A DNA stretch of 64,000 nt, from positions 96,001-160,000 of IMG/VR virus record IMGVR_UViG_3300027777_000023; one strand, written 5' to 3'. Of the stretch, positions 8,894 to 54,229 are shown in pieces (position 1 is the first letter of the stretch; every line of letters begins with the position of its first letter). The position numbers and the translations under genes are program-made. The notes beneath the pieces are model-generated. The model made no database searches. It worked only from the letters and a program-made list of their open reading frames with translations, and had not been told where the DNA came from. The stretch is from a virus.

Positions 8894-9961
8894 ATGAAGA
8901 AAGAAGCAAGCAACGCAGCCATATTTGAAAAGAAGATTCTAGACCTTGTAAAGAACAGAAAGATGCTCAACTTTGGAGCAAGCCATGCGCTAGCTGGTGC
9001 AGGTATGGGAGCACTAGGTGGTGGTGCAATAGGTGCACTAGAATCAATAAACGAACCCAAAGAAGAAGGAGCGCCTTCTCACTTGCTTGATAAGGTTCTA
9101 AGATATGGCACAATTGGTGCAGCTGCAGGTGGCGGACTAGGAGCAAGCCGTGGAGCTGGAATAGCTAAAAAATTAAAGAGCGAACAGCTAGGTCAAGTAA
9201 AGAACCTGTTGAGAGAAGGTATCAATCCTGAGTTGTTGCACAATACACTTCAAAGCGGTGGACATCTTGGTGATCTTCATGTGATGGACTATTTAAACAA
9301 AGCAACGGGAACACCTGATAAGCTGTATGGTGGGGCCATGAGAGCCACTGGATTTGGAGAAGGACTAGGTAGTAGCGCAATACCAGGTGAGCTAGATCAG
9401 ATAGGCTTGCATCAGGCTCAAAAGGGCCTCAATGAAGCTGATGCTTTAAAGAGAAAAGAAAGTAGACAAAAGATCTGGGAAGGTATTACCGGCGGAGTTG
9501 ATAATATGGGTGAAGGAGTGGGTGAAGGAATGCGTGCTGTGGGTAGCGGAATAGGTGCAGGACTACATAATGTGAGAGAGCATATGAGCGTGCGCAATAT
9601 TTCTAAAGAATTGAAAGAAGCTACGAAGAAACATAACGCAATTTTTAAAATATTTAAAAAGAACCCTAATGATCCATTAGCTAGACAGGCTTTTGAAGAA
9701 GCTAAAATGGAGATGGACAGTCTGGTGAGACAAAAGGCTAACATGGTAGAGCATTTTAATGCTGAATTGCCTGAAATGAGGAGCAAGGCCACAGAAAATA
9801 TCCTTAATGAGTCTAAACGCATGTCCACAGACAAGGCCGAGCTCGCAAAAAATAAATTACTTGAAAGATTGGATGCAGATATACGTGCTGCAGCTATGAG
9901 AGGCGACGCAAGAACACTTGCCGCGTTGAAAAGGCACAAAACTATGCTTCTTAAACACTAG
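8894..9961 (+). CDS. Putative internal virion protein (K-x-A motif, glycine-zipper segments, coiled coil)
   Basis: MKKEAS start; GAGMGALGGGAIG and GAAAGGGLGA segments. Confidence 0.7.
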   Translation: MKKEASNAAIFEKKILDLVKNRKMLNFGASHALAGAGMGALGGGAIGALESINEPKEEGAPSHLLDKVLRYGTIGAAAGGGLGASRGAGIAKKLKSEQLGQVKNLLREGINPELLHNTLQSGGHLGDLHVMDYLNKATGTPDKLYGGAMRATGFGEGLGSSAIPGELDQIGLHQAQKGLNEADALKRKESRQKIWEGITGGVDNMGEGVGEGMRAVGSGIGAGLHNVREHMSVRNISKELKEATKKHNAIFKIFKKNPNDPLARQAFEEAKMEMDSLVRQKANMVEHFNAELPEMRSKATENILNESKRMSTDKAELAKNKLLERLDADIRAAAMRGDARTLAALKRHKTMLLKH

Positions 9962-9966
9962 GTTTT

Positions 9967-12900
9967 ATGTTTAATTTTGTACAATTAGCTAAAAAACTAC
10001 AAAAAAACGTCAAAAAAGCAGAGAACAAAGAAAAATTAGTCACGTTTCTGCATAAATATGCGTTGGTTGTACAGAATTCAGACAAAAATCAGCCCACAAC
10101 GCAGAAACCAGACACAGTTGGAGTTGTTTCAGGTCAAACTCTAGGTGCCTTAGCGTCGCAAGTAGGTGAGTCACCAACACCAAAAGCAATGACCACACAG
10201 ATTACAGCACCAAAAGCTGTAAAGATGCCTTCTACTACGGAGAAACCTATTATGGCAGGCATTCTTGCCGAGGATCATCCAGGCGAAACACAATCAATCA
10301 ATGGCAATAGAGCTGTAGCTGGGGCTGATGCGCCCTCAAAGATGACTGCCTTCCCTAAAGTGATGGGTGAGGTAGCCGATACCGCAGCTCAGTCTACAGT
10401 GGAACTTTCTAGTCTACCCCCTGATCTTCTACACATGAGCAGGATGACTAACCCATTTGACGGAAACGCAAAATTATATGCAGGTGGCAAACTACGCTCA
10501 ACACCAACACCACCACCACAGGTTTTAACTCCTAGTCCTTCCCCAGTAAATAGCGCACAGAACCCAAGTAGACCTAAATTATCGCCAGGGTTAGAAGGAT
10601 ATGTGACTCCACAATATACTGCTAGCGGTATAGACACAGTTAAAAATGACCGTTTTGATAGTCGTTCATATATTGCTACTAGAGAATCTAACGGTGGAGA
10701 AAGCCCATATAATATGGAAAATTTTAAGGGGGTAATAACACCAAGGGCTGTTTTAAATAATACATATGGTGATCAACTAGATAAAAATGTAGCTGAGGCT
10801 AGTGCGTATAATAAGAAAAACAATCCACATAACGAAATAGAAAAAAATATAGATAAACCTGTGCATCTTTTCGAGTCTGACAAAGATGTAACCTCATATA
10901 GTCCAGCGTTTGCATCTAATTCTGCATCTCCAAGAAACGAGGGCATTATAAATATAAACCCTATAAGGAAGGATCGTGACGCATTTACATTGCAAAAAAA
11001 TCACATGGCGCAAATATCCCCAAACAATAAAAGCCTTAGTACTACGACTGATCCGGAGATGGTGCAAAATCCGTGGAATTCGTTAAGACATGAGGCAGCG
11101 CATGCAATGTATCCTGCTCAAAATCTTATACGTATGGAGGACAAAGATAGTGCATTGTCTAACAATGCACTTCGCAGCGCTCTAAATACCCAGAACCCAG
11201 AAATAGTTAAAACAATGCCTGCACATACCGAGGTCATGACTAGAGGATATTTTGCCGATGCGGGTGAAAGGGCTACAGGGATCAGTACAGCTCAGCAAGA
11301 CATGTTCAGACTTACAGGTAACAGGGCTAAAACTCCTGAACAGTTTCAGGCATTTATAAACAAATACTTAAGTTCTCCAAACATTGAAAAATCTATGCAA
11401 GAGTTGAGCCCCAACACTCGCAGATATATTAGATTTCATGTGGGTATGCCAGAAGAACAAAAGTGGAAATTCATGCAATCGGATGCGCACGTCGCCCCAG
11501 GCTTTGTACAGAACCAACAACAGCCGATGGGTCAAAAAATAGCTTCCTGTAGAAGCACTGGTGTATTCGACTGTGACGGTAATGAATACGTGAACGGTGA
11601 CGATGTTGAATTGTTAGGCAAACTAGGCTTTATTTTAGCTATTAGTGAGTATGGTAAGTTAGAAAAGACAAGTGAGGTATATGATCAGTATAGCTATATA
11701 GAAAAGATTGCAGGAATACCTAAGGCTGTGGTTAAAGCCGTAGATAAAGGTGATGCCTTCAGTGGTGAGTTCTTAAAGGATATGGATTACGACGTCCCAA
11801 AGGGTTATGAGATGAAAGGTGATCTATGTTGTCCTGTTGAGAAGAAGGCAGATGACGCGGCGCCTTCCAATACAACATGGTCTTCAGAATTATTAAATGA
11901 ACTAACGTCGAGAATAGCTAAAGACCAAAGTTTTCGATCAGGTAATGCAATATCAACCAATAACACAGTATCTGGTCAAGATATAGATAAAAGTAATATT
12001 GCTTGGCTGAAACCTCACTTAGATAAATTTGGATTACCGACAGGTCAACCAGGTAAAGATGTGGCATTACTTGTGCAGCATGCAGATTTTGATCCCGACT
12101 TTCAAGAAACTGTATTGCAGAAAATGCGCACACATAATCAAAGTAATCCTGGAAGCTACGGTGGTGAAACTGTTGCGCACTTGGATGACAGAATTAACGT
12201 TAATAGAGGACGTCCACAGATGTATGGCAGTCAAGGAGGAGAAATTTTTGAGAATGGAAAATGGACCTGGAAACCTAAAGAAATTTTTGAGTCTCACAAC
12301 CTAGAAAATCGAAGGAAAGAAATGGGGCTCATACCACATAAAGAATACACTGATCTTATAAATAAGCATTTTGTAAGCAAGTTACCTTTACCTGCACAAC
12401 AACCACCAACGCAAAATACACTCACACCAAACACAACACCAAATCTATCCACAAAGATTCAACCAACACCCATAGGAGTAAATCAAGATGTGTCGAATAT
12501 ATATGGAGCTGGTGATACTCCATATGGTGAGAAGCCTGTTAAAAATCCTTTTCCTGGAATAGCTGGGGATGTTGGTGTTAACGTTCTTGAGTTTCTTGCA
12601 GCTAGGGGAGCCCGCAGAGCTCAGAATAATAATATAGAAGCCGCTTTGAGTAAAGGTGTGCTTGGTGGTCCCTATGGGCCTCCTGTACCTCCAGGATCTG
12701 GTGGTACGCCAATTCCTGGATCATCTTTAATAGGTAAAGCTCGAATGTGGGGAAATGTCGCTAATGGTGTACCTCTGTTTGGTGCAGGAACTCAGTTACA
12801 GGGAGCAAACGATAGACGTAAAGATGGAGATTATACTGGAATGCTTATAGATGGTGTTGGAGCACTAGGTAGTGCCGCACAGCTTCATCCTTTGACTAAA

Positions 12901-13401
12901 GGTATAGGACTAGGGGTTAGCACAGCTAGCACTGGCGTGAACATAGCTAGAGACGTGCATAGATATAATAACCGGCCTGTAGAGTTTAGTAGAAATCCTG
13001 AGAATGTAAAACTTAACGCTCCAGAAAATCCTGTACAGATTCCTCAAACACTAGCTAAAGCTGGGAATGTAAGCAAAGAAGCTAAAGGCAGATGCTGGGA
13101 AGGCTATAAGCCTGTTAAAGGTAAAAAGCCTTATAGTGCGGATAGCTGTGAGCCGGTAGCTAAAGAAATAGAGAAAGAGGCAGGTATGCCAGATTGGTTA
13201 AGAAGAGCTATACGCAATAACGATAAATCTACGTTGAGTAGTGCAGGTAAGGCCGGGGCAAGAGCACGAGCAAAGAATCTGGCAGCTAAGAAAAGTAAAG
13301 ATGAATTAAGACGCATGCTTGATATGGGTGCTGAAGCGGTGCCCAAGATTATTCATCCACCTAGCGCATATAATGTACAACCTCCCTTGCCAGGGATCTA
13401 G
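9967..13401 (+). CDS. Multidomain putative virion protein: HExxH zincin-like region, DUF6624-like domain, Gly-rich hydrophobic region, CWEGY Cys motif
   Basis: LRHEAAH; RIAKDQSFR...LLVQHAD...HLDDRINVNRGRPQMYGSQ...RRKEMGL (DUF6624-like); GRCWEGYKPVKGKKPYSADSC; many K-x-A sites between modules. Confidence 0.7.
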   Translation: MFNFVQLAKKLQKNVKKAENKEKLVTFLHKYALVVQNSDKNQPTTQKPDTVGVVSGQTLGALASQVGESPTPKAMTTQITAPKAVKMPSTTEKPIMAGILAEDHPGETQSINGNRAVAGADAPSKMTAFPKVMGEVADTAAQSTVELSSLPPDLLHMSRMTNPFDGNAKLYAGGKLRSTPTPPPQVLTPSPSPVNSAQNPSRPKLSPGLEGYVTPQYTASGIDTVKNDRFDSRSYIATRESNGGESPYNMENFKGVITPRAVLNNTYGDQLDKNVAEASAYNKKNNPHNEIEKNIDKPVHLFESDKDVTSYSPAFASNSASPRNEGIININPIRKDRDAFTLQKNHMAQISPNNKSLSTTTDPEMVQNPWNSLRHEAAHAMYPAQNLIRMEDKDSALSNNALRSALNTQNPEIVKTMPAHTEVMTRGYFADAGERATGISTAQQDMFRLTGNRAKTPEQFQAFINKYLSSPNIEKSMQELSPNTRRYIRFHVGMPEEQKWKFMQSDAHVAPGFVQNQQQPMGQKIASCRSTGVFDCDGNEYVNGDDVELLGKLGFILAISEYGKLEKTSEVYDQYSYIEKIAGIPKAVVKAVDKGDAFSGEFLKDMDYDVPKGYEMKGDLCCPVEKKADDAAPSNTTWSSELLNELTSRIAKDQSFRSGNAISTNNTVSGQDIDKSNIAWLKPHLDKFGLPTGQPGKDVALLVQHADFDPDFQETVLQKMRTHNQSNPGSYGGETVAHLDDRINVNRGRPQMYGSQGGEIFENGKWTWKPKEIFESHNLENRRKEMGLIPHKEYTDLINKHFVSKLPLPAQQPPTQNTLTPNTTPNLSTKIQPTPIGVNQDVSNIYGAGDTPYGEKPVKNPFPGIAGDVGVNVLEFLAARGARRAQNNNIEAALSKGVLGGPYGPPVPPGSGGTPIPGSSLIGKARMWGNVANGVPLFGAGTQLQGANDRRKDGDYTGMLIDGVGALGSAAQLHPLTKGIGLGVSTASTGVNIARDVHRYNNRPVEFSRNPENVKLNAPENPVQIPQTLAKAGNVSKEAKGRCWEGYKPVKGKKPYSADSCEPVAKEIEKEAGMPDWLRRAIRNNDKSTLSSAGKAGARARAKNLAAKKSKDELRRMLDMGAEAVPKIIHPPSAYNVQPPLPGI

Positions 13402-13480
13402 TACCCCCCCCCACCCATATAAATAGTGATCTAGATGGTATAATACTTTGAATCAGCGGCCAGTAACTGCTGATAGTTTT
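13402..13480 (+). promoter_or_regulatory. Cassette promoter 4 with hairpin leader
   Basis: polyC, TATAAATAG-N9-TGGTATAATACTTTGAATCAG; 45-nt identity with 7456-7500. Confidence 0.85.
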
Positions 13481-19929: not shown

Positions 19930-20376
19930 ATGAAGCGACAGATTTACGAATGCTCTCTTTGTGGCAGAATATGGACTAGGCTCACTTTGAGGATGGAGCA
20001 GGGTAAGACTTGCAATAAAAAGTGTGCGAGTATAAAGGGTTATCTCTGCGGCGATCGTAAAGAGACAGGCATCGAACTAAAGCTGCAGGAGATATTGAGT
20101 GAAATGGGTATAGAGTATACTACTCAAAAACCTTTGTTGGGGGTCACTGTAGCAGACATATTCATTGAACCTAACGTGGCCGTATTCGCTGACGGCACAT
20201 ACTGGCATAGCGGTGCAGCTAAAGAATACAAGGATGCGGAGAAAACAAAAACACTCAAACGCGGTGGGTACGTGGTACTGCGTTTAGAAGAAAAAGAGAT
20301 AAACAAAGATGTTGATAAGATTAAATTAAAATTGCTTGAGGCTTATGGAAAGCGTAGAATAAAGAAAGAATTATGA
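19930..20376 (+). CDS. DUF559/Vsr-like PD-(D/E)xK endonuclease with N-terminal Cys cluster
   Basis: ETGIE...ADIFI...VFADGTYWH...D..KTKTLKRGGYVVLRL. Confidence 0.8.
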   Translation: MKRQIYECSLCGRIWTRLTLRMEQGKTCNKKCASIKGYLCGDRKETGIELKLQEILSEMGIEYTTQKPLLGVTVADIFIEPNVAVFADGTYWHSGAAKEYKDAEKTKTLKRGGYVVLRLEEKEINKDVDKIKLKLLEAYGKRRIKKEL

Positions 20377-21263
20377 ATACAGAGCAGGCATACATCAACG
20401 GGTTTGTTAAGAGAGCATCGCAATACGGCTTCAACCAGGATGAGGCTCTTTATATACTAAAGAGGGCAAACACTCAGGGGATAAAAAATCCCATTAAACC
20501 TGACCCTATGTGGGAATCTGGTAAAGCTCCCACCACAACCCAAACCGCCGCAGCTCCCAAGATTACTGCAGCTAAGCAGAATAATGCCGTGCAGCCCTCT
20601 GCAGATCCAGCGCCAACATCAATGCCTTCCAGAGCATCCATGATGACACAAACACCTGAAACCGTTGCTCAAAATCGAGAAATAGCTAATATTCCGTTGA
20701 GTGGTATGACACCAAAAAATCAATGGGAATCGCAGTTGCATAAGATCATGGCACAAAAACCTGTATTTAATGTTGGGGATAATGAAAACAACTTTCGTGG
20801 CGGTATCCGACCTGATAGCACTATCGATGATTTAGCAGCAAAAAACGCACCTTACCCTATAGAAATGGCTGGAGATCACATGAACAATTTAGTGAGGGCT
20901 TTAATGAGCGACGGCACGCCAGCGAAATATATGCACCATTTCCCTGATAGTCCACAAAATGGTGAAACACCACGTAGTGCTTTTCTTCCTTATACTATTC
21001 AGGGTATAAAGGCTAATGATCCTCGAGGAATAAAAATTGATCACGTTAATGAAATTCATAATCACCTAAAAAAATATGATCCAACTTGGGGACCTGATTT
21101 TAGGATACCTGTCGAAAAGCATGATATGCCTGAAGAAGAATCTGATTTACACACGCCTTGGTTAAATTATGCCGGTAGAAAAGCCCAGTTTGAAAAGCTA
21201 TTTGCTGATCGTATAAATAACATGAACGATCCCACAGCAAATCTAACAACAAATTTACAATAA
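20373..21263 (+). CDS. GFVKRA-leader protein 1 (unknown cargo)
   Basis: MNTEQAYINGFVKRASQYG leader. Confidence 0.8.
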   Translation: MNTEQAYINGFVKRASQYGFNQDEALYILKRANTQGIKNPIKPDPMWESGKAPTTTQTAAAPKITAAKQNNAVQPSADPAPTSMPSRASMMTQTPETVAQNREIANIPLSGMTPKNQWESQLHKIMAQKPVFNVGDNENNFRGGIRPDSTIDDLAAKNAPYPIEMAGDHMNNLVRALMSDGTPAKYMHHFPDSPQNGETPRSAFLPYTIQGIKANDPRGIKIDHVNEIHNHLKKYDPTWGPDFRIPVEKHDMPEEESDLHTPWLNYAGRKAQFEKLFADRINNMNDPTANLTTNLQ

Positions 21264-21264
21264 T

Positions 21265-21558
21265 ATGAATACAGAGCAGGCATACATCAACGGGTTTGTT
21301 AAGAGAGCATCGCAGTACGGTTATACAAGAGAAGCAGCATTCAAGTTGGCTGGTATAGCTGAAGACACTGGACTAGACATGAAAGATCTGGGTCTTGGTG
21401 GTAATGAGTTTAGTGCCAAACCTTCACCAGCAGGAATCAAGATCAATGAGCAGAATCCACCACCAGTACCTGCCCCAACTGCACAACCAAACAAAGGGTT
21501 TTTGAGTCAATTGTTCAGTCGTCCAGCACCAATACCTATCGCACATACAGCTAAATAA
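21265..21558 (+). CDS. GFVKRA-leader protein 2
   Basis: First 50 nt identical to those of 20373 gene. Confidence 0.8.
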   Translation: MNTEQAYINGFVKRASQYGYTREAAFKLAGIAEDTGLDMKDLGLGGNEFSAKPSPAGIKINEQNPPPVPAPTAQPNKGFLSQLFSRPAPIPIAHTAK

Positions 21559-21560
21559 TT

Positions 21561-21929
21561 ATGGCTACCGCAACAACAGTAACAGAAATGAACTCTGGGA
21601 AACACCCAGAAGGAAGTAAGAGATCTTCTCATTGGTCTACCACACGTAAACATCATCTAGAGAAGCACGCTGAGTGTGCTCTTTGTGGTGGTACGAAGAA
21701 ACTAAACGTACATCACATCAAGCCTTTTCATGTACATCCTGAGCTAGAGTTAGAGCCATCTAATCTAATTACTCTTTGCGAAGACAAAGGAAATGGGGTA
21801 TACTGTCATTTATTCTTTGGTCACCTAGGCAACTACAAAAGCATCAATCCGAACGTTGTTGAGGATGTGCTGTTGTGGAAAGAAAAGCTAAGCAATAAAC
21901 CAAAAGACGCAAAAGATTTAGAACAATAA
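21561..21929 (+). CDS. HNH endonuclease
   Basis: CALCG...VHHIKPF...NLITLC...CHLFFGH. Confidence 0.85.
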   Translation: MATATTVTEMNSGKHPEGSKRSSHWSTTRKHHLEKHAECALCGGTKKLNVHHIKPFHVHPELELEPSNLITLCEDKGNGVYCHLFFGHLGNYKSINPNVVEDVLLWKEKLSNKPKDAKDLEQ

Positions 21930-21930
21930 T

Positions 21931-22170
21931 ATGAACGTAGAACAACAAGCATACATCGAAGGATTCGTAAAGAGAGCAAGTGAATATAGATTTAGCCGTA
22001 ATGAGGCTATTGAACTATTAAAAACATCTGCCGAGAAAGCTCCATACAACGGAGTTAAGACTTTGGGTGAGCTGTGGAATGAGTTTAGATCTGGTAAACC
22101 CACTATGGCTACTAAGCTTCCTGTATCCGTAGGCACTCCTTCAATCAATCCTAACCTAGTCGTTAAATAA
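21931..22170 (+). CDS. GFVKRA-leader protein 3
   Basis: MNVEQQAYIEGFVKRASEY...EAIELLK. Confidence 0.75.
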   Translation: MNVEQQAYIEGFVKRASEYRFSRNEAIELLKTSAEKAPYNGVKTLGELWNEFRSGKPTMATKLPVSVGTPSINPNLVVK

Positions 22171-22171
22171 T

Positions 22172-22555
22172 ATGAACACACAACAACAAGCATACATCGA
22201 AGGATTCGTTAAAAGAGCATCACAATACGGCTTCAACTATAATGAAGCTATTGAACTATTGAAGCAGGCAGCATTAACTGCAGATCAGCACAAATTAGAT
22301 GTGAACCATAATGGGAAGATTGAGGCGAGCGATCTTAAGGCTTTGCGCAATCGTAAAAAGACTGTAAAGACTGCTGGACCTGTACCTGAAATGGATACTC
22401 AGCCTGGCGGTATGACTGCCTCTCGAGCAGCAAATAACCCGGTACGCAATACAGCTCAGGCTCCTGCTCCTGGAGTATCTGCCGCCAGCAAAGCTGATTC
22501 ATTAAAATATAGACTTCCAATTCCCACGGGCGGAACAACAGAACCAAGGAAGTAA
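22172..22555 (+). CDS. GFVKRA-leader protein 4 with EF-hand-like loop
   Basis: Leader followed by KLDVNHNGKIEASDLKALR (DxNxNGxIxxxD). Confidence 0.75.
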   Translation: MNTQQQAYIEGFVKRASQYGFNYNEAIELLKQAALTADQHKLDVNHNGKIEASDLKALRNRKKTVKTAGPVPEMDTQPGGMTASRAANNPVRNTAQAPAPGVSAASKADSLKYRLPIPTGGTTEPRK

Positions 22556-22559
22556 TCTT

Positions 22560-23327
22560 ATGCCTGCCCGTTCAGAAGCTCAACAAAGATTGATGGGGAT
22601 GGCTCTTTCTGCAAAACGCGGCAAGGGTCATTACGGTGGTAAAGTTAAAGAAATTGCAAATAGTATGACTCTAAAACAACTACATGATTTTGCTGCTACA
22701 AAGCATGAAGGACTGCCTGAAAAGAAAGCTTTTGTAGAAGGCTTTGTTAAAAGAGCAAATGAATACGGCTTCAATCAGAATGAGGCTATTGAACTATTAA
22801 AAGAGGCTGAGTCTAGCTGGCTGGGCAGATATATGGCAGCTAAAACAGTTCCTCAGAGCATTGCAATGAATAAAGCTGTGATTATGAATGAAATTGACCC
22901 TACCGGAGAATTTCAAGAAAAAAACCTATTCATGACGCCTGAAACATTTAAAAAGCAGAGAGAGCTTGCATACGGACATTTGAGAAATACTTTAAAAAGA
23001 TCAACTGCAGCTGGTACAGGTAAAAACTTTCTTTTGGGTGCCGGGCTCGGCGGATTAGTGGGAGCGGTACAGGGCGGGGTGTTAGGAGAAGAACTTCACC
23101 ACGATCCACTCACAGGTGCAGGTATAGGAGGATTAGCCGGAGGTCTAACCTTGGGCGGTATAATGGCACTAGAAAACCTTGCAGGAAGATTGAAAAATAA
23201 AGTAATTACTGACGAAGATATTGCAAAAATGCGTGAGCAGCAAAAGCACAATTCGATAACATCTGAATTTATGCCATTTAGAGAGATGATTGACGCGCAT
23301 AGGGCAGGAAAGCCTCGAGAACAGTAA
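22560..23327 (+). CDS. DUF3008-like N-terminus, internal GFVKRA module, glycine-zipper region
   Basis: MPARSEAQQRLMGMALSAKRG (DUF3008-like); AFVEGFVKRANEYGFNQNEAIELLKEA; GAGLGGLVGAVQGG. Confidence 0.75.
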   Translation: MPARSEAQQRLMGMALSAKRGKGHYGGKVKEIANSMTLKQLHDFAATKHEGLPEKKAFVEGFVKRANEYGFNQNEAIELLKEAESSWLGRYMAAKTVPQSIAMNKAVIMNEIDPTGEFQEKNLFMTPETFKKQRELAYGHLRNTLKRSTAAGTGKNFLLGAGLGGLVGAVQGGVLGEELHHDPLTGAGIGGLAGGLTLGGIMALENLAGRLKNKVITDEDIAKMREQQKHNSITSEFMPFREMIDAHRAGKPREQ

Positions 23328-23333
23328 AACTAA

Positions 23334-24056
23334 ATGAACAAAGCTCAACAACAGCGGGCACTGCAGTATAAGATCTGCATATCAAAGCTAGCTGCTATTG
23401 ATGTGAAGAGCTTTGAGCATCCACCCATAGTTCAGAACACTCCGGTGGATAACATACTGTCTCTCGTACTAGGAAAGAATTATATTCCGCGTCCTCAGCA
23501 TGGTGAAGACGTCGTGGATGCAATGAATCGTGGTAGTAGAGAACTGGATTCTCATGATCTGCAGGCGGACGCTATACTAAATAATCCCGTAACAAAGCGC
23601 CTAGGTTTAGGTGGTACGACTGGTAAGCTAATGGCAGAGTCTCTAAGCTATAGTCCTGAATTAAGGAGCAAGCTATCTCCGTTGTTTGGTGGTGACCCAG
23701 CCCAAGCAGCTAAACATCTACATAGAGGTTTATATAACGCTGGTGCTTTTGGTCCATTATCGTCCGGTAACGCTAAAGACATTATGGGATCGATAAATGA
23801 TAATTTCTATAAGTCTGGAGAAATGGGTAGAGCAATAGCAGCTAAGATAGCTAGAGAAAGACTCATTGGTGGTATGGGAGACAACAAACCTGACAGTGCT
23901 TTTCCTAGAAAAGAACTAGCAAAAGGTAAAAAGCATGAGAGTGAGCACACAGACAACAAGTCTATTGCAAAAGAAATAGCAAAAGACCATCTCAGTGAAA
24001 GATCAGATTATTATACCGCACTAGACAAAAGCAAGCTAGGACATTTTAAGTATTAA
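23334..24056 (+). CDS. K-x-A protein with C-terminal DUF5661-like motif
   Basis: SKLAA; ELAKGKKHESEHTDNKSIAKEIAKDHLSERSDYYTAL. Confidence 0.7.
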   Translation: MNKAQQQRALQYKICISKLAAIDVKSFEHPPIVQNTPVDNILSLVLGKNYIPRPQHGEDVVDAMNRGSRELDSHDLQADAILNNPVTKRLGLGGTTGKLMAESLSYSPELRSKLSPLFGGDPAQAAKHLHRGLYNAGAFGPLSSGNAKDIMGSINDNFYKSGEMGRAIAAKIARERLIGGMGDNKPDSAFPRKELAKGKKHESEHTDNKSIAKEIAKDHLSERSDYYTALDKSKLGHFKY

Positions 24057-34123: not shown

Positions 34124-34942
34124 ATGACGAAAGCTAAAACACCCAAAAAGCCGGACACTAGCCCTAAAGTATATCAGCGCGAAAAGATCGACTTTGATCT
34201 ACATATTAGAAATCTTCCTTGGACACCCAAGCAAGAAGCTTTGTTTGAGCTAGGCGTACGCAAAGACGCTAGGATTATTTTCCTCTCAGGACCTGCAGGA
34301 AGCTCAAAAACAACATGTGCAATGCGCATAGCTTTGCAGCTCCTAAACGAAAAGAAAGTGTCAGACATTGTGTGCGTTAGAGCTGCAGTAGAAAGTAGCG
34401 ACGCCAAGCTAGGCTATCTTCCTGGAGACATCACAGACAAGTATGGTCCTTACATGGGTCCGTTTGAGGATAAACTAGAAGAACTTCTTCCTGAAGCTGA
34501 AGTCAAAAAGCTAAAGGCCGACAACAGGATTGACTACAAACCTATTAACTTTGTACGTGGTGCAAGCTGGACTGCCCGATGCGTGATCCTAGACGAATGT
34601 CAAAACCTTACAATCAATGAACTGCAAACACTCATGACTCGTATAGGTAAGTTTACAAAAATGATTATCTGTGCAGATAGTAAACAGTCAGATTTGCCAA
34701 AGAGCAAACAAGGAGCTTTTGATCGGTGCAGTAAGATGTTTGATACTGATGAAGCCAGGGCTTTTGGTATTTACAGTCTACACTTTACTAACGAAGACAT
34801 TGTTCGTAGTGAGCTGTGTCGATTTATTGTAGAGGCGTTTGAGACTAATCATTACCTGCTACACCCAGAGCAGCAGAAGCCTGCTCCCGTGCCCGAATCT
34901 ATACCAATGATGACGGTTCCTTGGAGACCTGGAGAAGCCTAG
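34124..34942 (+). CDS. phoH: PhoH-family ATPase
   Basis: GPAGSSKT; RAAVES...LGYLPGD; RGASW; ILDECQN; DSKQSDL; IVRSELC. Confidence 0.92.
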   Translation: MTKAKTPKKPDTSPKVYQREKIDFDLHIRNLPWTPKQEALFELGVRKDARIIFLSGPAGSSKTTCAMRIALQLLNEKKVSDIVCVRAAVESSDAKLGYLPGDITDKYGPYMGPFEDKLEELLPEAEVKKLKADNRIDYKPINFVRGASWTARCVILDECQNLTINELQTLMTRIGKFTKMIICADSKQSDLPKSKQGAFDRCSKMFDTDEARAFGIYSLHFTNEDIVRSELCRFIVEAFETNHYLLHPEQQKPAPVPESIPMMTVPWRPGEA

Positions 34943-34943
34943 T

Positions 34944-35498
34944 ATGAAATGCAAGGTATTGTCTATATACTCTGCAATTTTATTGGTGCTTGCTGAGAAA
35001 GTTTTGGCTGGCGACAATAAAGAATCTCAGCTGATTCGAAGAGCCTATCTAGATATACTAGGTGTTCTTCCCACAGCTGAAGAGCTCGCCTGGTATTGCG
35101 AGTACAATACAGACGGATACAGAGTAGCTGTAGACTGGCTGGTAAAGAGATCCTCAGCAGACAATAAGACAAGAAGGTTTTTGCTATCTGCTGAGTACAG
35201 AAACAAGCCACTAGAAGATATCAAAATAGCAGACCTAGAGAAGAACATATTCTATCTCTCTGGGCTTGAGTATCGCGAAGGTGCAATTGAATTAAAGCAG
35301 GCTAAGCAGAAGTTTATAGAGCTAGCTAAAAAGGAAGCAGATGCTGACCTGGATATTATAGACTATATGTGTAACCAGCTAATGAGTAGGGTTACTGGTG
35401 TAGACGAGGCTAATATGCTGCTAGGAGTACTAAGAAAGAATGGCTGGGACGACACCCTAGAGGCCATCCTAGACCTCTATGACGTTAAACATAAGTAA
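34944..35498 (+). CDS. Secreted protein with DUF1549-like (PSD1) motif
   Basis: Signal peptide then SQLIRRAYLDILGVLPTAEEL, matching LIRRAYFDLIGIPPT of the 16956 gene. Confidence 0.65.
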   Translation: MKCKVLSIYSAILLVLAEKVLAGDNKESQLIRRAYLDILGVLPTAEELAWYCEYNTDGYRVAVDWLVKRSSADNKTRRFLLSAEYRNKPLEDIKIADLEKNIFYLSGLEYREGAIELKQAKQKFIELAKKEADADLDIIDYMCNQLMSRVTGVDEANMLLGVLRKNGWDDTLEAILDLYDVKHK

Positions 35499-35502
35499 TG
35501 AC

Positions 35503-36486
35503 TTAGTTGGTAATTATTGAATTATTGGATCCGGTGCGTTTACCTCGTGCAGGCTTTTGAGCCCCTTGCTCAACTTGTTCAGCAGTCTCCTGTTCAACCT
35601 CAGCCACCTCAACAGACTTAACTGGTTCTTCCGCAATCTCAATCTTTTCTTCCGAGGGTGCCGCTGGCAACTGCTCTCTAGGAGCTTCAACACGCTCGAG
35701 AATATCTTTTATATAGCCGATGTCATTTGACCTTTTCTTGTCTGCCTGAATCTCTAGTAACCTATTTAAGGCGAGTATCAGTGTAACTGCCAGCGGGTCA
35801 AATACAGCAATAAGCGCAAATATAAAATACTGCACAGCCGTGTCCAGATCTGTGTGCAGTGCATTAGCAATAAACTTAAACGAACCTATATCTGTTGACT
35901 TATTGGTTTCCATTTTTAATGAGAGCAGCTCCTCGTCAAGAACAGACAATAATTCTTTTGCTTGTTTGATCTCTGTTTCTTTTCTAGCCAGCTCTTCGTT
36001 AGCCTCAGCGATTGCTTTATAGGCTTGATCTCTTGGGGCCTTATAGTTGCCCGAGTCTTTAATTCGCTGCTCCTGGGCTGTACGAATCTCGTTAAGCGAT
36101 TTAATTCTGTTTGTGTCCAACTCTATCGTTTCCAAGGCAGACTTTCTGTTGTTTTGATTTAGCTCTATCTTAGCGTCGATAGAGCCCATGATTCCTGCGT
36201 GTCGCTGATACGCATTACTAAGAAACCCAAAGATTCCTAGACTGGTAATGCCCATGAGGATCACTACAGCAGTGCATAGATATAACCTTAGTAATCTACT
36301 GATGCTTTTCCAGTGGTTGTGTAGAAAAGAAGCGGCTACGAGTTTTCCTAGCTCCAGTGAGCTTGCCATGATTCCCACAGCGATGGTGCTTCCAGAAAAC
36401 AGTACAGTGAGTCCTTTAATGCTGAAAAAGGCAGAGCAGCCAGCCACAAACAGTGCGGTAAATGTGGTAAGTACTATGAAGAACAT
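35503..36486 (-). CDS. Multi-TM coiled-coil membrane protein
   Basis: Three N-terminal TMs, coiled coil, further TM IFALIAVFDPLAVTLILA. Confidence 0.8.
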   Translation of the reverse strand: MFFIVLTTFTALFVAGCSAFFSIKGLTVLFSGSTIAVGIMASSLELGKLVAASFLHNHWKSISRLLRLYLCTAVVILMGITSLGIFGFLSNAYQRHAGIMGSIDAKIELNQNNRKSALETIELDTNRIKSLNEIRTAQEQRIKDSGNYKAPRDQAYKAIAEANEELARKETEIKQAKELLSVLDEELLSLKMETNKSTDIGSFKFIANALHTDLDTAVQYFIFALIAVFDPLAVTLILALNRLLEIQADKKRSNDIGYIKDILERVEAPREQLPAAPSEEKIEIAEEPVKSVEVAEVEQETAEQVEQGAQKPARGKRTGSNNSIITN

Positions 36487-48722: not shown

Positions 48723-50549
48723 TTAATCTTTTAACAATCTTTCCAAATAGGCTTTGTTTTGCTTGTCCTCGAGCATCTTTTGCATCTCAGGATATTTTGA
48801 AGTAATTTCAACTTCTTTCTCACTGGGTTTGCTTTCTGCCCTACCTTCTTCCTCAGCTTTATCAAGGACCTTGTTGATTGCTCTGGTTTGAATGGCTTTG
48901 GACACTGCGTCAGCTACTCCCGCCTCTTTGAGAGAAGCAAACTTGGCGTCACTGAGAGAGTTCACATCTCCAAGTCTGTTAAAGAAAGCTGGCGTGCGCC
49001 CTTGTCCTCCTCCACCAACATTGATGTTGATGTTTTGACCTTGTCCTCCTGAGCCACGATTACGATCTCTGGTCATTAGATAGGCTAGTAAGGCGGCACC
49101 TCCAAGAGGAAGCAGATTATTACCCAGCGCATTATCTCCCAACAGTCCTGTACCTACCGCTTTAACGCTATCGTTAGCTTTGCCCAGTGCTCCGGCGACA
49201 CCATGATAAGCCTTGGAAAGTGTATTGTACGCTTCTGGAAAATTATGATGTAATACACCTTTAACGAATCCACGATCAGCTACATCGTGAGTTAAATCAA
49301 TACCGCCACTGACAGTATTGCCTACTATTTTTGCTGCGTCTCCAACAGCGCCCTCAGCTTTAGCGACCACATCACCTACCGGTCCAGGCAGTGTAGTTTT
49401 TGCTTGTTGTTGGTAGTCTGCAGTGCTTGTAGGTATTTTAAATGTTTGGCCCAAGACTGTGACTTCTCTTCCGGGCATAGAAGGATCTTGGGATATTCCT
49501 CCAATATTGAACAACTGTTTGCGTTTTTCTTCATCGGCTGCTTGTTGATTTTGCAACTTTATGGCTTGCTGCAGTCCTGGAGGCAACGCCGTTGAGGTTG
49601 GGGTTGGGGTCGAGGTTGAGGGTGCGGCAACAGTGGTAGTAGGTCTAGTAGGTGCTGTGGGAGTACTCAACGGCTGCTGTGCCTGTGACGAAGTATAAGG
49701 ACTTCTAGGATTAGCGTTAGGGAAAGTTGCAGCCAAGTATTCATTATTTGGGTCAAATGTGGGAAATGTTGGGGGTGTTACTTTGGTGTAACCTTGCCCT
49801 GTCGACCTCAGAGGATCATACCCAGCAGCTGTGGCTTTTGCCTGTGCGGCTTGATTTGCATTGTAGTCGGCCATTTGTCGTTGATACTTTGGAAAGTGAT
49901 CTAGAGTAAATTTTCGCGCTTCCTGAAATTTAGCGTTGTGCTGCCTAAAAGCTTCCTTTTTTTCAGCCATAAAATCATCCATTTGCTGTGGATTGCCGGT
50001 ACGCCTCAATGCGTTTTCAGCTTTGCCATAGTAATCAGTTAATTCATTGTCTCGAGCACGAGCGGCAATATCTACACGATTTACAACGTCTCCGTGAGTT
50101 CTTTGTCGAGAAAAAAGGTCAGGACTGTCAAAAAATCCAGTATGTAGTTGGTCTGCGCGCATATCTTCTGGTGGTGCAGTTGGTGATGCAGCTAGAGGCG
50201 CAGTTATAGGCAGGGTTGGTGGTCGGGTTGGAGGTATTTTAACTGCAGTATCTTTTAGCATATCAAGACCCTGATCCATGTAATCTTTTTTCCTCTTAGC
50301 CTCGCGCGTTATTTTGGTTGCAATAGTCTCAGGAGCAACCTGAGCCGCAGGCATAGCCTCTGGTGAGGGAAATGAAGGTTTGGGTATAGCGGTTGGTTCT
50401 AACGGCGTGGACCATGACGGGACGGCTGAAAATCTGCGCTGCTGCTCACGCTCCCGATCTTCCAACTGTTGGAAATAATCTGGGGATTTTGCTTGTTTTT
50501 CAAGACCATCATTAACGCCTTTTTCAAGTTCAGTAAAATCTAATTGCAT
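48723..50549 (-). CDS. Putative internal virion protein (K-x-A motifs, Pro/Thr/Gln-rich)
   Basis: GVNDGLEKQAK; AKFASLKEAG; hydrophobic LLPLGGAALLAYL. Confidence 0.7.
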   Translation of the reverse strand: MQLDFTELEKGVNDGLEKQAKSPDYFQQLEDREREQQRRFSAVPSWSTPLEPTAIPKPSFPSPEAMPAAQVAPETIATKITREAKRKKDYMDQGLDMLKDTAVKIPPTRPPTLPITAPLAASPTAPPEDMRADQLHTGFFDSPDLFSRQRTHGDVVNRVDIAARARDNELTDYYGKAENALRRTGNPQQMDDFMAEKKEAFRQHNAKFQEARKFTLDHFPKYQRQMADYNANQAAQAKATAAGYDPLRSTGQGYTKVTPPTFPTFDPNNEYLAATFPNANPRSPYTSSQAQQPLSTPTAPTRPTTTVAAPSTSTPTPTSTALPPGLQQAIKLQNQQAADEEKRKQLFNIGGISQDPSMPGREVTVLGQTFKIPTSTADYQQQAKTTLPGPVGDVVAKAEGAVGDAAKIVGNTVSGGIDLTHDVADRGFVKGVLHHNFPEAYNTLSKAYHGVAGALGKANDSVKAVGTGLLGDNALGNNLLPLGGAALLAYLMTRDRNRGSGGQGQNININVGGGGQGRTPAFFNRLGDVNSLSDAKFASLKEAGVADAVSKAIQTRAINKVLDKAEEEGRAESKPSEKEVEITSKYPEMQKMLEDKQNKAYLERLLKD

Positions 50550-50550
50550 A

Positions 50551-51822
50551 TTAGTGATATGGTTGAAGCTCTACGCGTGTGGGTAATTGACCTTCCATGA
50601 ACTCGTCAGGACGTTCACGCATCTTCTTGCGCAAGAGATATGTAAGATAGGCTGATCCTGCGCTGGTTCCTAGCAATCCTGTTGCAGCATAGTCTGCGGC
50701 AGGAGTAAACGGTCTCATTGCTTGATGTGCGGCAGCATCTGCCAATCGGGCAATAGATCCGCTTTCGATAGGTACATCTTCTTTTCTGGATGCGGTCTTA
50801 CCAAAAATAGTGTCATGAGCAACTCCACTACAGAACGCGTCCACACAAGGAGTTTCAGATTCTGCAGAGCCTGTCTTTATTCTTGAAAGCAGATCAATAT
50901 ACTCTTTTTGTGCAGTCATGAGTTCTTTTTGGATATGCTCTTTCTGCTTATAGTAAAAGTCTTTTTTAGCGTCTCTGAATCCCTCCTGTCCTCCAACCAG
51001 CATGCGCACAGGATGATTTGCAATACTTCCAACAGCTCGCTGAAACATTCCAGGAGGAACATCATCAAGAGATTCGGCTTTTTTTGATTTAAGTTTTTTA
51101 TGAAACTCGAGGTCTGTCAGCATGTCTGCTTTTGTGCTATCCGAGCTCATCAAGTTCTCTTGATCTTTTTCTTTTGTGTACTTGTCAAAAGCATGCCCAG
51201 CACTCAGCCCTGCGAGAGGAAGCATCAGAGCTTTCAATTTACCAGGTACAGCTTTTCCAAGCATCATACCAGCTGCGCTTCCAGCATACTTACCAGCATT
51301 TCTTTTTAAATGCTCTTTTATCCCTGGATTTTTCTCCATTTCAAAAATGTGCTCTTTGCGCCCGTCGGGACGTTCAATAGTTTTGCTATACTGCATACCT
51401 CCATGGCCTGGACCAGCATCTAGTACAGAACCTAGCATTCCTCCAGCAATCATCGAGGGCAATCCACCAATAGAGCCGGCGACCATACCAGCGTTTCGTC
51501 CGATGTTTCTTTTGAACCCTTCTCCAGTATGCTCTTCTGAGCTGGTGGTTTTTGTGTGTTCATAGCTGCCGTCAGGATGTTCCACGATAGAGTATGTGGA
51601 GCGCGCTGCAGCAACTTTCTGAGGCATGAGGTTTTCTGGAATAGGAATTCGAAGCACTTTCTCATCTTCTGTGTTATAGGCTTTCCTCGCTTCTAGACTT
51701 CTGCGAAGCTCTTGTTCTTTGGCCAGCTGCAAAGCGCTAAACAAACTCCCGCCAAAAACCTGAGAGGCCTCGTAGTTTTCTTCTGGAGTTAGTGGAATTT
51801 GAGTGAGTGCTTTCTTGTTCAT
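50551..51822 (-). CDS. Putative internal virion protein (K-x-A motifs, glycine zippers)
   Basis: QKVAA, KKAE, GKTAS; duplicated KRN(I/A)G(R/K)xAG segments. Confidence 0.7.
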   Translation of the reverse strand: MNKKALTQIPLTPEENYEASQVFGGSLFSALQLAKEQELRRSLEARKAYNTEDEKVLRIPIPENLMPQKVAAARSTYSIVEHPDGSYEHTKTTSSEEHTGEGFKRNIGRNAGMVAGSIGGLPSMIAGGMLGSVLDAGPGHGGMQYSKTIERPDGRKEHIFEMEKNPGIKEHLKRNAGKYAGSAAGMMLGKAVPGKLKALMLPLAGLSAGHAFDKYTKEKDQENLMSSDSTKADMLTDLEFHKKLKSKKAESLDDVPPGMFQRAVGSIANHPVRMLVGGQEGFRDAKKDFYYKQKEHIQKELMTAQKEYIDLLSRIKTGSAESETPCVDAFCSGVAHDTIFGKTASRKEDVPIESGSIARLADAAAHQAMRPFTPAADYAATGLLGTSAGSAYLTYLLRKKMRERPDEFMEGQLPTRVELQPYH

Positions 51823-51823
51823 G

Positions 51824-52204
51824 TTAATCTTTCTTTTCTTCTTTTGTACCGTAGATGATAAATACTCTAAAGCTTCCCTGCGGGGTCCAGGTGTCTTTCC
51901 AGAGAGTGATCATATACTTTTTGTTATTCATTAATTCGTTAAGCATGTCCTGATCTTTCTGCTGTTCAGGATCAAGAATGATGTTCTTGAATGTGAACGC
52001 ACTCATGTCTTGCGCTCTGGGACGCTTTTTAATTCCTTTTGCTGTTTCAAAAGCGTCAATGACTGCCTCAGGATCAAATCCTTTGTTGGTTACCTCATTG
52101 CGCACATTGCGAGGCGTGACTGAAGCGAGCAAGTCTGCTGCGCTAGAGCCAAAGTCAAAATGTTCTGTTTCTCTTGGTTCAATTCCTTTGTTAAGTAAGT
52201 CCAT
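51824..52204 (-). CDS. Hypothetical protein (126 aa)
   Basis: ATG ORF within a tightly packed operon. Confidence 0.7.
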   Translation of the reverse strand: MDLLNKGIEPRETEHFDFGSSAADLLASVTPRNVRNEVTNKGFDPEAVIDAFETAKGIKKRPRAQDMSAFTFKNIILDPEQQKDQDMLNELMNNKKYMITLWKDTWTPQGSFRVFIIYGTKEEKKD

Positions 52205-52721
52205 GTTCTCGTTTAAGGTTGGCTGTTATACGTCTTACTAGAGTAACCTTCTCACGCTCACGTTCAAGAGCTTTATTAAGTCCTTCAACAGATTTATCCA
52301 TTTCGTCGAGCCCAAGACCCGCAAGAGCACCACCAGCAAGCGATCCTTTGAATGCTAGCTCTGGAAGATCTCTCAATGCACTGCCTAGCGAGCCAGCGAT
52401 CATTCCTCCAGCTGTGCCGCCAAGCATAGCTCCAACAGGAACTCCGGCCACTCCTCCAAGCATACCTCCACCGGCTGCGCCCGCAAGAGAACCAAGAGCA
52501 GTGCCTGTAATTCCTCCTACGTTTAAATTTTTAGCTGATCCACCGTCAGCAGCTGAAGCATTTTTTACAAGAGAACCCACCGTAGACGCAATCTTATACA
52601 CAGCTTCTCCATTGTTGATGTTTTGCAGTGCTGTCTCTAGCTCCTCTAGAGAAGATCCAATCTTTTCCAGTTCCATAGCCAATTCGTTTTTGATGGCCTG
52701 TGCGTATTTTGATAGTTCCAT
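52191..52721 (-). CDS. Glycine-zipper K-x-A protein
   Basis: SKYAQ, YKIAS, VKNAS; GSLAGAAGGGMLGGVAGVPVGAMLGG. Confidence 0.75.
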   Translation of the reverse strand: MELSKYAQAIKNELAMELEKIGSSLEELETALQNINNGEAVYKIASTVGSLVKNASAADGGSAKNLNVGGITGTALGSLAGAAGGGMLGGVAGVPVGAMLGGTAGGMIAGSLGSALRDLPELAFKGSLAGGALAGLGLDEMDKSVEGLNKALEREREKVTLVRRITANLKREHGLT

Positions 52722-52724
52722 AAA

Positions 52725-53096
52725 TTATTGTTTGACGTGAATCATTCCTGTGCTTGGATCGTATTCTGTAAATTTTCTCTTGTGCAGACTATTGTATATT
52801 ATATTGCCAACACCAAAGCCCGCCAAGCTCAATAGTGTTCTGGCGTGTTTTGGAAGTTCTGCGTACTTTGCGACCACATGCATCATAGCCATTCCAGCAG
52901 TACCCGCAATAAGATGGTCAAAAACCTCAGGACTTTTAATCAAGCTGAACAACGACTGCTTTTTTTGTTGATCTAGTGCGTGATCCTGTCCAACTAGTTT
53001 GAGCAATGAGCTTGCTGTGAAAGTGGGTGGAGCGTCCACGTCATATCCTTTTGGTAGGATACTAAACATGTCAGATGAGCCGATAGACATACTCAT
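52725..53096 (-). CDS. Small membrane-associated protein
   Basis: Two hydrophobic helices. Confidence 0.7.
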   Translation of the reverse strand: MSMSIGSSDMFSILPKGYDVDAPPTFTASSLLKLVGQDHALDQQKKQSLFSLIKSPEVFDHLIAGTAGMAMMHVVAKYAELPKHARTLLSLAGFGVGNIIYNSLHKRKFTEYDPSTGMIHVKQ

Positions 53097-53098
53097 AA

Positions 53099-54226
53099 TT
53101 ATTGTGCTTTGTAGGCCAGACTAGCCAACACAGGAACGCTTGACTCTACCAAACTTCTTATTCTGCGATTTTGAAGTTTTGCAGGATCTCTGCGAATTTC
53201 TTCGGCTCTTTCAGGGTGAAGTTCGTCAATTATATGATGTACTCCACGGGCTGCTATATAGTGGCCGATGAACGAACGTAGCGGATGTTCTGCATTTTCA
53301 TTTACATAATCATTAAGATAGCCGGAAGCTGTGTTTTTAGCATTCACCATGAGATTTGCAAGACTGTTGCTGTCGTAGCTTGCAATTTTTTGACCTTCAT
53401 CAGATGCAGCATCTACTAGCGCAGCAGGATCAACATGAATATTTTCAGTCTGCTGATTTCCCAAAGACTCTTTCATTGCTTTGAGCTTTTGTGCAAATTT
53501 CTTTGCTGGACTATATCTCCAATTTTGGCCCCCTTCGTGCTGCAACATAAAAGTAGGATTATGGCTTCCGTTAGCCAATGTCATATATATGTTGTCAGGG
53601 CTGCTTCGGTGAATCTGTGCTGTACCTTTGTTTAAAGCATCATTTTCAAAATTAAGAATATTGTCATCAGCTAGTCTGGATACCTTTGAATCTTCTGCGG
53701 GATACTCCTCAGGAAGTCCTCCAAAACTATATACCAGATTACCGTCAGATAACCTTAAACCGTCCTTGGTGCGAACATATTTCCACTTAGCCTGATTAGA
53801 CAGGGTGGGTAGTATATTTTCGTTCACGGGCATACCCTCAAGATCCACAGCTAGCTTTACCTCTGGTTGCACGGGTGAGGGTAATGGTTGATTTTGTACT
53901 CCTTTAAATGCGTCCTGGTTTTTATTAATAATCTTCAACAAAGTGTCGTCTGGGGCAGTCTTTATCTTTTCTTGTACCGCCGCAGGATTATTCGTGTTCT
54001 TGTCTAGAAAGCCTCGTACCAACGAACCTGAGAAAGGTACACCCGGAATGTTCCAGGAATGCTGCTGCGCATTTTGCATGAACTGCGGAAAGTTTACTTT
54101 GTTTTGACGAAACCGAGACAATAGTTGTTCTGGTGTTTCACCAGGTATTTTTGTTTGAAGATCGGCCGTCTTTTGCAGCTCTTCAGAAACACCTAGATAG
54201 AATGCTGGAAGGTTTAGATCAATCAT
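53099..54226 (-). CDS. Putative virion protein with K-x-A motifs
   Basis: AFYLGVSEELQKTAD; VKLAV; QKIAS. Confidence 0.7.
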   Translation of the reverse strand: MIDLNLPAFYLGVSEELQKTADLQTKIPGETPEQLLSRFRQNKVNFPQFMQNAQQHSWNIPGVPFSGSLVRGFLDKNTNNPAAVQEKIKTAPDDTLLKIINKNQDAFKGVQNQPLPSPVQPEVKLAVDLEGMPVNENILPTLSNQAKWKYVRTKDGLRLSDGNLVYSFGGLPEEYPAEDSKVSRLADDNILNFENDALNKGTAQIHRSSPDNIYMTLANGSHNPTFMLQHEGGQNWRYSPAKKFAQKLKAMKESLGNQQTENIHVDPAALVDAASDEGQKIASYDSNSLANLMVNAKNTASGYLNDYVNENAEHPLRSFIGHYIAARGVHHIIDELHPERAEEIRRDPAKLQNRRIRSLVESSVPVLASLAYKAQ

Positions 54227-54229
54227 ACT

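Follow-up and report, generated by a model that had tools for sequence, protein, structure and literature searches.

Why should five closely packed genes of a phage encode the same short peptide and, behind it, proteins that have nothing in common? The question is raised by the 64,000-nt stretch of viral DNA analysed here (the window), which corresponds to bases 96001-160000 of IMG/VR record IMGVR_UViG_3300027777_000023, a genome of 189,602 bp with an estimated completeness of 97%. The peptide, in the following called the GFVKRA module, is encoded by five genes of an array at positions 20373-23327 of the window. Based on comparisons of the module, of the sequences behind it and of the genes around it, we favour, with moderate confidence, the reading that the module is a cleavable leader for incorporation into the prohead, carried by a hypervariable repertoire of proteins that are internal and probably ejected. 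In this view, the array represents a hypervariable locus for proteins of this kind. Throughout, coordinates marked G000 are those of the whole record, L-numbers designate module-bearing or related loci and P-numbers (P0001-P0344) proteins of the family.

A sequence-only reading of the window had placed the module at the start of the genes beginning at 20373, 21265, 21931 and 22172 and in the interior of the gene beginning at 22560 (genes 1 to 5 in the following), which is confirmed by the open reading frames. Nine columns are invariant over the five copies (A, G-F-V-K-R-A, Y and A), and the downstream parts of the five proteins show no similarity among them, as that reading had claimed. Its two statements on the nucleotide level turned out to be exact: the first 50 nt from the ATG are identical in genes 1 and 2 (51 nt if the preceding T is counted), and AATGA(A/G)GCTATTGAACTATT, described as common to other copies, is present at three positions and no others (22000, 22241 and 22779), compared to none in 100 shuffled sequences. 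In three of the four genes with an N-terminal module, the start lies inside AATAATATG, the TAA of which is the stop codon of the upstream gene; the junctions between array genes comprise only 1-6 nt. Outside the pair of genes 1 and 2, the copies in the window diverge at synonymous sites, though three have a 20-mer in common. Because these other copies differ synonymously, selection acts on the peptide, and the module is conserved at the protein level. The idea of a recent amplification, put forward in the same reading, holds for the 51-nt pair only, while the family as a whole is clade-wide and most copies differ at synonymous sites. Its labels for the downstream parts were roughly right: the Pro-rich tail and the domain of unknown type are there, whereas the EF-hand-like loop and the glycine zipper stay below the Pfam thresholds. 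It had missed a DUF3008 domain in gene 5, three further module proteins in the genome and the interleaved Vsr-like and HNH endonuclease genes.

A profile search with the leader, which had also been suggested there, was performed on 1.84 billion representatives with a profile of the five copies and yielded 475 clusters at 50% identity with E<=1e-3, of which 213 reach E<=1e-10; a collection at 90% identity gave 493 module matches. The consensus of about 33 residues reads MNT(Q)QQAYIxGFVKRAxxYG(F/Y)xxxEAIxLLKx(A/S). In the family logo, G, F, K, R, A and a second G are invariant, and the information content drops sharply at the end of the module: the A/S of L-L-K-x-A/S still holds 3.4 bits, the residue behind it less than 1 bit. 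Among hundreds of proteins, the identity of the peptide remains at 60-80%. The 221 proteins that were fetched have total lengths of less than 100 to several hundred residues, and in 195 of them the module begins within the first three residues. Most of the remaining exceptions are probably mis-called starts or fusions that retain an internal Met, often with K-x-A/S just before it. Taken together, the comparisons support the view of the module as a portable N-terminal leader. No Pfam or PHROG family spans it, a tblastn search of 50,697 deposited phage genomes with the module gave no match, and only one weak match (33% identity) was obtained in 185,579 prokaryotic species genomes; judged by these searches, the family is virus-only. 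Literature searches on GFVKRA, DUF3008 and DUF5661 found no papers.

Behind this uniform leader, the proteins are highly diverse. The 219 tails fall into 74 BLAST components including 42 singletons, or into 65 groups with looser clustering, and they are mosaic, as exemplified by P0007, in which a tail of the gene 5 type is joined to one of the gene 3 type. What the tails have in common is their composition: 89% carry a net positive charge (median +5) compared to 35% of the genome's other open reading frames, the cysteine content is 0.04% versus 1.1% in control open reading frames, A, G and P are enriched and complexity is low. This composition resembles that of internal head proteins. Most tails are devoid of a hydrophobic segment, 33 of the 219 contain an EF-hand-like DxDxDGKI loop and 47 contain GxxxGxxxG. 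A Pfam domain of any kind was found in about eight of the 150 longest tails (DUF3008 three times, EF-hand twice, and others once each, among them MazG plus DUF6321 and PP-binding).

Some individual tails deserve mention in their own right. P0309 (444 aa) possesses a MazG pyrophosphohydrolase plus DUF6321 tail, while P0110 and P0120 contain HE(F/Y)GH zincin-like motifs; these three are candidates for truly enzymatic packaged cargo. As a separate observation, the last residue is Lys or Arg in 53% of the module proteins versus 16% of control open reading frames, often in the form ...[A/V/G]-K.

Where else does the module occur in this genome? An iterated profile detected eight module proteins with nine copies in total, five of these proteins being encoded in the array and three in the head-gene region outside the window. 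In that region, a protein of 319 aa was recognised as the major capsid protein, since 97% of it aligns at 28% identity with the annotated capsid protein of Salmonella phage Arash (tblastn, E 4e-27); the latter phage (our locus L041, OQ632216.1, region 141708-160583) has a published virion proteome of 116 proteins. With the AlphaFold2 model of the 319-aa protein (predicted local distance difference test score, pLDDT, 55), the best Foldseek match had an E-value of 1.5e-3, and the top matches were nearly all capsid proteins or encapsulins of the HK97 fold. Its Atlas neighbours are capsid-protein clusters, it has more than 240 close homologues, and phmmer against PDB sequences gave chance matches only. 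We accept the HK97 fold for this protein since nearly all top Foldseek matches share it and the tblastn match to Arash agrees. Upstream of the capsid gene lies the gene of the head maturation protease, which is interrupted by an intein with Hint and LAGLIDADG domains, about 390 residues long, while relatives encode an intein-free form of 480 aa; an intein-free homologue was assigned to phrog_18299, a family of head maturation proteases (E 2.4e-9). For the proteins of the portal region, Pfam gave no match, and an Atlas search with a 304-aa scaffold-like protein found nothing.

Directly behind the protease gene follows a gene whose product carries two to three diverged module copies in every relative examined, including lineages with 60-66% capsid identity, and whose middle copy, FVKSAxYIEGFL..KQAVDLYD, is kept throughout the clade. 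We consider this protein a candidate for a multivalent hub of the prohead core and refer to it as hub. A further protein of 131 aa, encoded about 700 bp upstream of the capsid gene, combines a module with a glycine zipper. Moreover, most module copies lie near head genes in four of the five distant, incomplete records that were searched. The gene neighbourhoods thus support a tie between the module and head assembly, and presumably the module originated in the head cluster, the arrays being later expansions specific to the lineage.

Further hints come from the distribution of a single residue pair. A scaffold block of ten proteins was compiled from this genome and three distant relatives; by far the strongest enrichment among the 400 pairs of residues at positions i and i+2 is that of K-x-A (123 observed versus 39.8 expected, z 15.8), and its flanks suggest the extended form [L/I]-x-K-x-A-[S/E]. 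K-x-[AG] occurs at expectation over the whole genome (571 versus 571) and is enriched 2.5-7x in proteins of 353, 496, 304 and 130 aa and slightly in the protease; no enrichment was seen for reverse or shifted patterns. In six relatives, enrichment above z 3 is limited to the block between protease and capsid gene, and Arash shows a like K-x-A enrichment in gp220, gp223 and gp225, encoded upstream of its capsid gene. The capsid protein itself contains four K-x-[AG] sites, all within aa 1-27, and none in its other 292 residues. In the tails, the picture is reversed: K-x-G (ratio 0.41) and K-x-A (0.53) are the most depleted of the 400 pairs. In 65 unrelated tail representatives, K-x-[AG] is depleted about 2.4-fold, with 60 counted versus 143 expected, or 128 with shuffling in 12-residue blocks, and none of 200 shuffles reached 60; R-x-[AG], [AG]-x-K, K-xx-[AG] and K-[AG] occur at or above expectation. 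The five tails in the window fit this pattern with two K-x-[AG] versus 8.8 expected (gene 1: one versus 2.4; gene 5: none versus 2.8). The module, finally, contains two sites of the extended form, F-V-K-R-A-S and L-L-K-x-A, the second of which falls on the conservation boundary described above. An artefact of coiled-coil periodicity was rejected, given that A-x-K, K-xx-A, K-A and R-x-A are not enriched, and so was compositional segregation or redundancy as the cause of the depletion in tails, which persists with block shuffling and one representative per family.

In the simplest reading of these statistics, the head maturation protease would cleave at K-x-A, with a predicted specificity of hydrophobic-x-K-x-A. 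Tails avoid K-x-[A/G] whereas the scaffold block is enriched in it, and it is therefore suggested that the tails, unlike the scaffolds, are selected to survive something; this would be a protease present in the same compartment. The capsid-targeting propeptide proposed in the sequence-only reading is partly and indirectly supported by a portable leader on at least 65 tail families, module copies in the head cluster and K-x-A statistics fitting leader removal. Its term 'payloads', on the other hand, overstates the nature of tails that are predominantly basic, nearly Cys-free, of low complexity and rarely assignable to a Pfam domain. The engineering value that it suggested is speculative, as is the use of a structured, self-contained tag for loading cargo into capsids.

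Early K-x-A sites, within the first 3-30 residues, are also present in several other hypothetical proteins encoded in the window (8894-9961, 9967-13401, 23334-24056 and 48723-56065), some of which have few later sites. The sites read MKKEA, NVKKA, ISKLA, LEKQA, LQKTA and LSKLA. These proteins might possess propeptides of a different and shorter kind that would be substrates of the same protease.

How could these elements work together? Docking, cleavage, packaging and ejection are all inferred, and we imagine the following course of events. The predicted helix-loop-helix of about 33 residues would dock a protein into the assembling prohead core, most likely via the multi-module hub or, alternatively, at the inner face of the capsid protein. 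The protease would then cut at hydrophobic-x-K-x-A, shredding the proteins of the scaffold block, trimming about 26 residues from the capsid protein and removing the leader at L-L-K-x-A/S and possibly also at F-V-K-R-A. The basic, Cys-free tails without K-x-A/G sites would survive, remain in the head together with the DNA and probably be ejected into the host. Tentatively, we extend this scheme to a whole uncultivated clade of phages with genomes of 185-230 kb, which might combine a hub-docking tag, a protease that strips this tag with a specificity not described before (hydrophobic-x-K-x-A) and a hypervariable repertoire of at least 65 unrelated families of injected basic proteins, which would be selected for the absence of such sites and could possibly serve as counter-defence or takeover factors.

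The predicted structure of the module allows for a different interpretation. In the AlphaFold2 model of the gene 5 protein (alignment of eight sequences, mean pLDDT 46), which is usable for secondary structure only, a helix at residues 53-68, a loop and a helix at residues 73-84 extend over the module, in agreement with a G/N-capped pattern in the family logo. The logo also shows that each of the two helices exposes a broad, conserved hydrophobic face, suggestive of partner binding or self-association. The module might be a general oligomerisation or assembly domain and not a targeting signal as such, and all module proteins might be transient assembly factors or external virion decorations instead of delivered cargo. 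In favour of this speak, besides the hydrophobic faces, a hub built from two to three copies, which fits a self-associating repeat, tails that are mostly of low complexity and without a recognisable enzymatic domain, and the position of the array upstream of collagen-like fibre genes, with no convincing terminator between. Nevertheless, we regard this explanation as rather unlikely, since it does not account for tails that avoid a motif in which true scaffold-block proteins are enriched; external decorations would never meet a protease confined to the prohead, and the complete turnover of tails between close relatives would be odd for core assembly factors.

Several points weigh against a cleavable prohead leader as such. 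The AlphaFold2 confidence on the module is low (pLDDT around 50), and the assignment of the protease rests on one PHROG family, the homologue having no match in Pfam. Instead of marking cleavage sites, K-x-A might serve in binding or have a structural role. Arash, the only cultured relative as judged by the capsid protein, lacks the module. In addition, a holin-like gene is interleaved with the array in relatives, and because of this arrangement and the GxxxGxxxG tails some weight has to be given to a role at the membrane or in lysis. In such a scenario, the proteins would act at the host membrane in lysis or envelope remodelling, and the module would dock them, on the cytoplasmic side, to a complex associated with a holin or a peptidase. 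A small downstream gene accompanies the holin-like gene (phrog_2359) among the module genes of relatives, no plus-strand terminator separates the holin-like gene from the array, and a C1 peptidase gene adjoins the array in this genome and in L002. This peptidase gene, however, is missing in most relatives, just as most tails lack a hydrophobic segment, and neither the module copies in the protease-to-capsid block of every lineage nor the K-x-A grammar common to head proteins would be explained, so that we judge a membrane function quite improbable. It is hardly credible that the common 5' sequence is mainly a recombination handle with which HNH and Vsr-like endonucleases shuffle cassettes, the peptide itself having no targeting role: the 51-nt identity, the shared 20-mer, the endonuclease genes inside or beside the array of the relatives examined and the mosaic tails would be in line with it, but synonymous differences at a conserved peptide argue for selection on the protein, and divergent module copies sit inside conserved head proteins.

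Three other classes of leader were considered and rejected. A signal peptide does not match a hydrophilic and helical leader without hydrophobic core. Leaders of ribosomally synthesised and post-translationally modified peptides (Nif11/NHLP type) do not match tails that are long (about 45-265 residues in the window) and contain 0.04% Cys, nor neighbours that are endonucleases, fibre genes and a holin-like gene instead of maturases. Finally, a trafficking domain of polymorphic toxins was dismissed as there are no toxin/immunity pairs and the tails are of low complexity.

A cleavable prohead leader would have a well-known counterpart in phage T4, in which the capsid targeting sequence (CTS), an N-terminal propeptide of about 10-20 residues on IPI, IPII, IPIII and Alt, contacts the prohead core and is removed by gp21 through cleavage at a consensus site at its end, while the processed proteins remain associated with the DNA and become ejected (PMC3012670; PMC7411985). 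The internal proteins of T-even phages are 'highly diverse' and have only the CTS in common (PMC3012670; PMC7411985). In the module family, too, proteins with hypervariable and unrelated tails begin with one conserved leader at their very N-terminus. In contrast to the CTS, the module comprises about 33 residues with a predicted helix-loop-helix, is repeated two to three times within a head-cluster protein and would be cleaved at K-x-A instead of a T4-type motif. Since tblastn, Pfam and PHROG revealed no sequence homology to the CTS or to T4 internal proteins, we regard the module as a putative functional analogue of the CTS and not as a member of its family. In the giant phage SPN3US and in phiKZ-type phages, head and ejection proteins carry long N-terminal propeptides that are cut by the prohead protease, in SPN3US at the motif AXE, and the propeptide of SPN3US gp47 was hypothesised by the authors to target gp47 into the prohead (PMC7411985). 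The SPN3US propeptides described have 111-130 residues and are not presented as one common module (PMC7411985). Like these phages, the genome analysed here encodes phage multisubunit RNA polymerase beta-like proteins (in the window), but it employs one short module common to hundreds of proteins, and in the motif inferred for it, P3 is Lys and P1 is Ala, whereas P1 is Glu in SPN3US. Two further systems resemble the module in single aspects. In P22-type scaffolding proteins, a basic helix-loop-helix of about 30 residues suffices for procapsid entry and has been used to load foreign cargo; this coat-binding element is C-terminal and uncleaved, and no array of natural cargo genes is known. The module has a similar size and, in a low-confidence model, a similar fold, but is N-terminal or, in the hub, internal. 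The cargo-loading peptide of encapsulins is a short conserved terminal tag that sends unrelated cargo into a shell of the HK97 fold; with about 10 residues, it is C-terminal, uncleaved and part of a cellular system. As with this tag, a short conserved terminal peptide is found on unrelated proteins in the module family, although it is N-terminal and phage-borne.

If a prohead leader is indeed what the module represents, it would be a second, independently evolved and much larger natural case of the capsid-targeting principle of T4. An unannotated module, absent from Pfam, PHROGs and the literature, would cover hundreds of environmental phage protein families, a new specificity of a prohead protease would have been predicted from sequence statistics alone, and the hypervariable locus of probable injected proteins would be a place to seek anti-defence functions. 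Enrichment of a motif in scaffolds together with its avoidance in cargo could become a general means to recognise, in uncultivated phages, both cleavage motifs and internal proteins.

The hypervariability becomes apparent when the array is compared with that of relatives. All 14 module-bearing IMG/VR loci found are syntenic with this genome. Relatives contain arrays of three to eight module genes at the same site, with a DUF5661 gene and collagen fibres as 3' limit; homologues of the DUF5661 protein close the array in L002, L003, L004, L006 and L007. The holin-like gene (phrog_2359, E 2.6e-13) and the small gene behind it lie upstream of or among the array genes. At this same site, sets of tails are almost wholly different even between phages with 93%-identical capsid proteins. 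Additional module genes were found at other sites in L012/L013 and L014. Homologues of the Vsr-like gene (58-66% identity, L002-L010) lie inside or beside the array in the relatives examined, and homologues of the HNH gene (63-70% identity) do so in several of them, the order being variable. These endonucleases may drive the shuffling of cassettes at common 5' sequences. Apart from that, the steady retention of both genes is uncommon for free-standing homing endonucleases.

Table 1 Features of the module array and of the head-gene region.
Feature	Position	Strand	Remarks
Vsr/DUF559-like endonuclease gene, 148 aa	19930..20376	+	Pfam DUF559 E 5.7e-8, Vsr 4.5e-5; PHROG endonuclease families
Module gene 1, 296 aa	20373..21263	+	Module E 2e-18; leader aa 1-32 (20373-20468), end L-K-R-A
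Module gene 2, 97 aa	21265..21558	+	Leader aa 1-29, variant end F-K-L-A-G; tail Pro-rich
HNH endonuclease gene, 122 aa	21561..21929	+	Pfam HNH E 1e-5; phrog_144 E 6e-11; within array
Module gene 3, 79 aa	21931..22170	+	Leader aa 1-33 (21931-22029), end L-K-T-S; tail short, basic
Module gene 4, 127 aa	22172..22555	+	Module E 2e-19; leader aa 1-33 (22172-22270), end L-K-Q-A
Module gene 5, 255 aa	22560..23327	+	DUF3008 aa 3-56, then P-E-K-K-A; module internal, ~aa 57-83 (22728-22808), end L-K-E-A
DUF5661-bearing protein, 240 aa, without module	23334..24056	+	Pfam DUF5661 E 5.9e-7
Head maturation protease gene with intein, 871 aa	G000 169858-172473 (L001:1858-4473)		Intein-free homologue: phrog_18299
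Hub gene, directly after protease gene	G000 172532-173524 (L001:4532-5524)		Homologues in L009, L011, L015, L020-L040
Major capsid protein, 319 aa	G000 176114-177073		tblastn, Foldseek, Atlas
Proteins with 3-7x K-x-A enrichment (these proteins only)	G000 34486-35547, 166386-167876, 173552-174466, 174616-175008		Outside window

Within the array of the window (Table 1), the 3' end of the Vsr/DUF559-like gene overlaps the start of gene 1. The tail of gene 1 (264 aa) belongs to no known family, the protein having no Pfam or PHROG match, and has homologues in P0104 and P0111; gene 2 forms a subfamily with P0021, P0028, P0035 and P0051, and the tail of gene 3 reappears as C-terminal segment of P0007, P0020 and P0117. 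In gene 4, the leader is followed by an EF-hand/dockerin-like loop at aa 41-58 (22292-22345) and by a basic Pro/Ala-rich tail. The loop scores below the Pfam cut-offs (Dockerin_1 18.5 versus 22.9, E 0.0023; EF-hand_7 17.1 versus 30, E 0.0072) and is hence EF-hand-like only; a relative with two loops reaches an E-value of 7e-8. The N-terminus of the gene 5 protein was identified as DUF3008 (PF11450) with 47.5 bits versus a cut-off of 24 (E 2e-12). Behind its module follow a helical region and a glycine zipper at aa 159-196 (23034-23147); for the latter, the Pfam matches are sub-threshold. The DUF5661 gene is located directly upstream of the collagen-like fibre genes.

Besides the RNA polymerase proteins mentioned above, the window codes for a ribonucleotide reductase, homing endonucleases, PhoH, two long collagen-like fibre proteins and one glycosyltransferase. 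It also contains a DUF1501 plus PSCyt/PSD1 gene pair, and as pairs of this type are typical of Planctomycetota and Verrucomicrobiota, the host of the phage is probably a member of this group. The five module genes sit in a block of co-oriented genes that is closely packed over the array. Since convincing terminator-like sites on the plus strand are present at 13452 and 32772 and nowhere else in the window, the array may be co-transcribed with the upstream holin-like gene and the downstream fibre genes.

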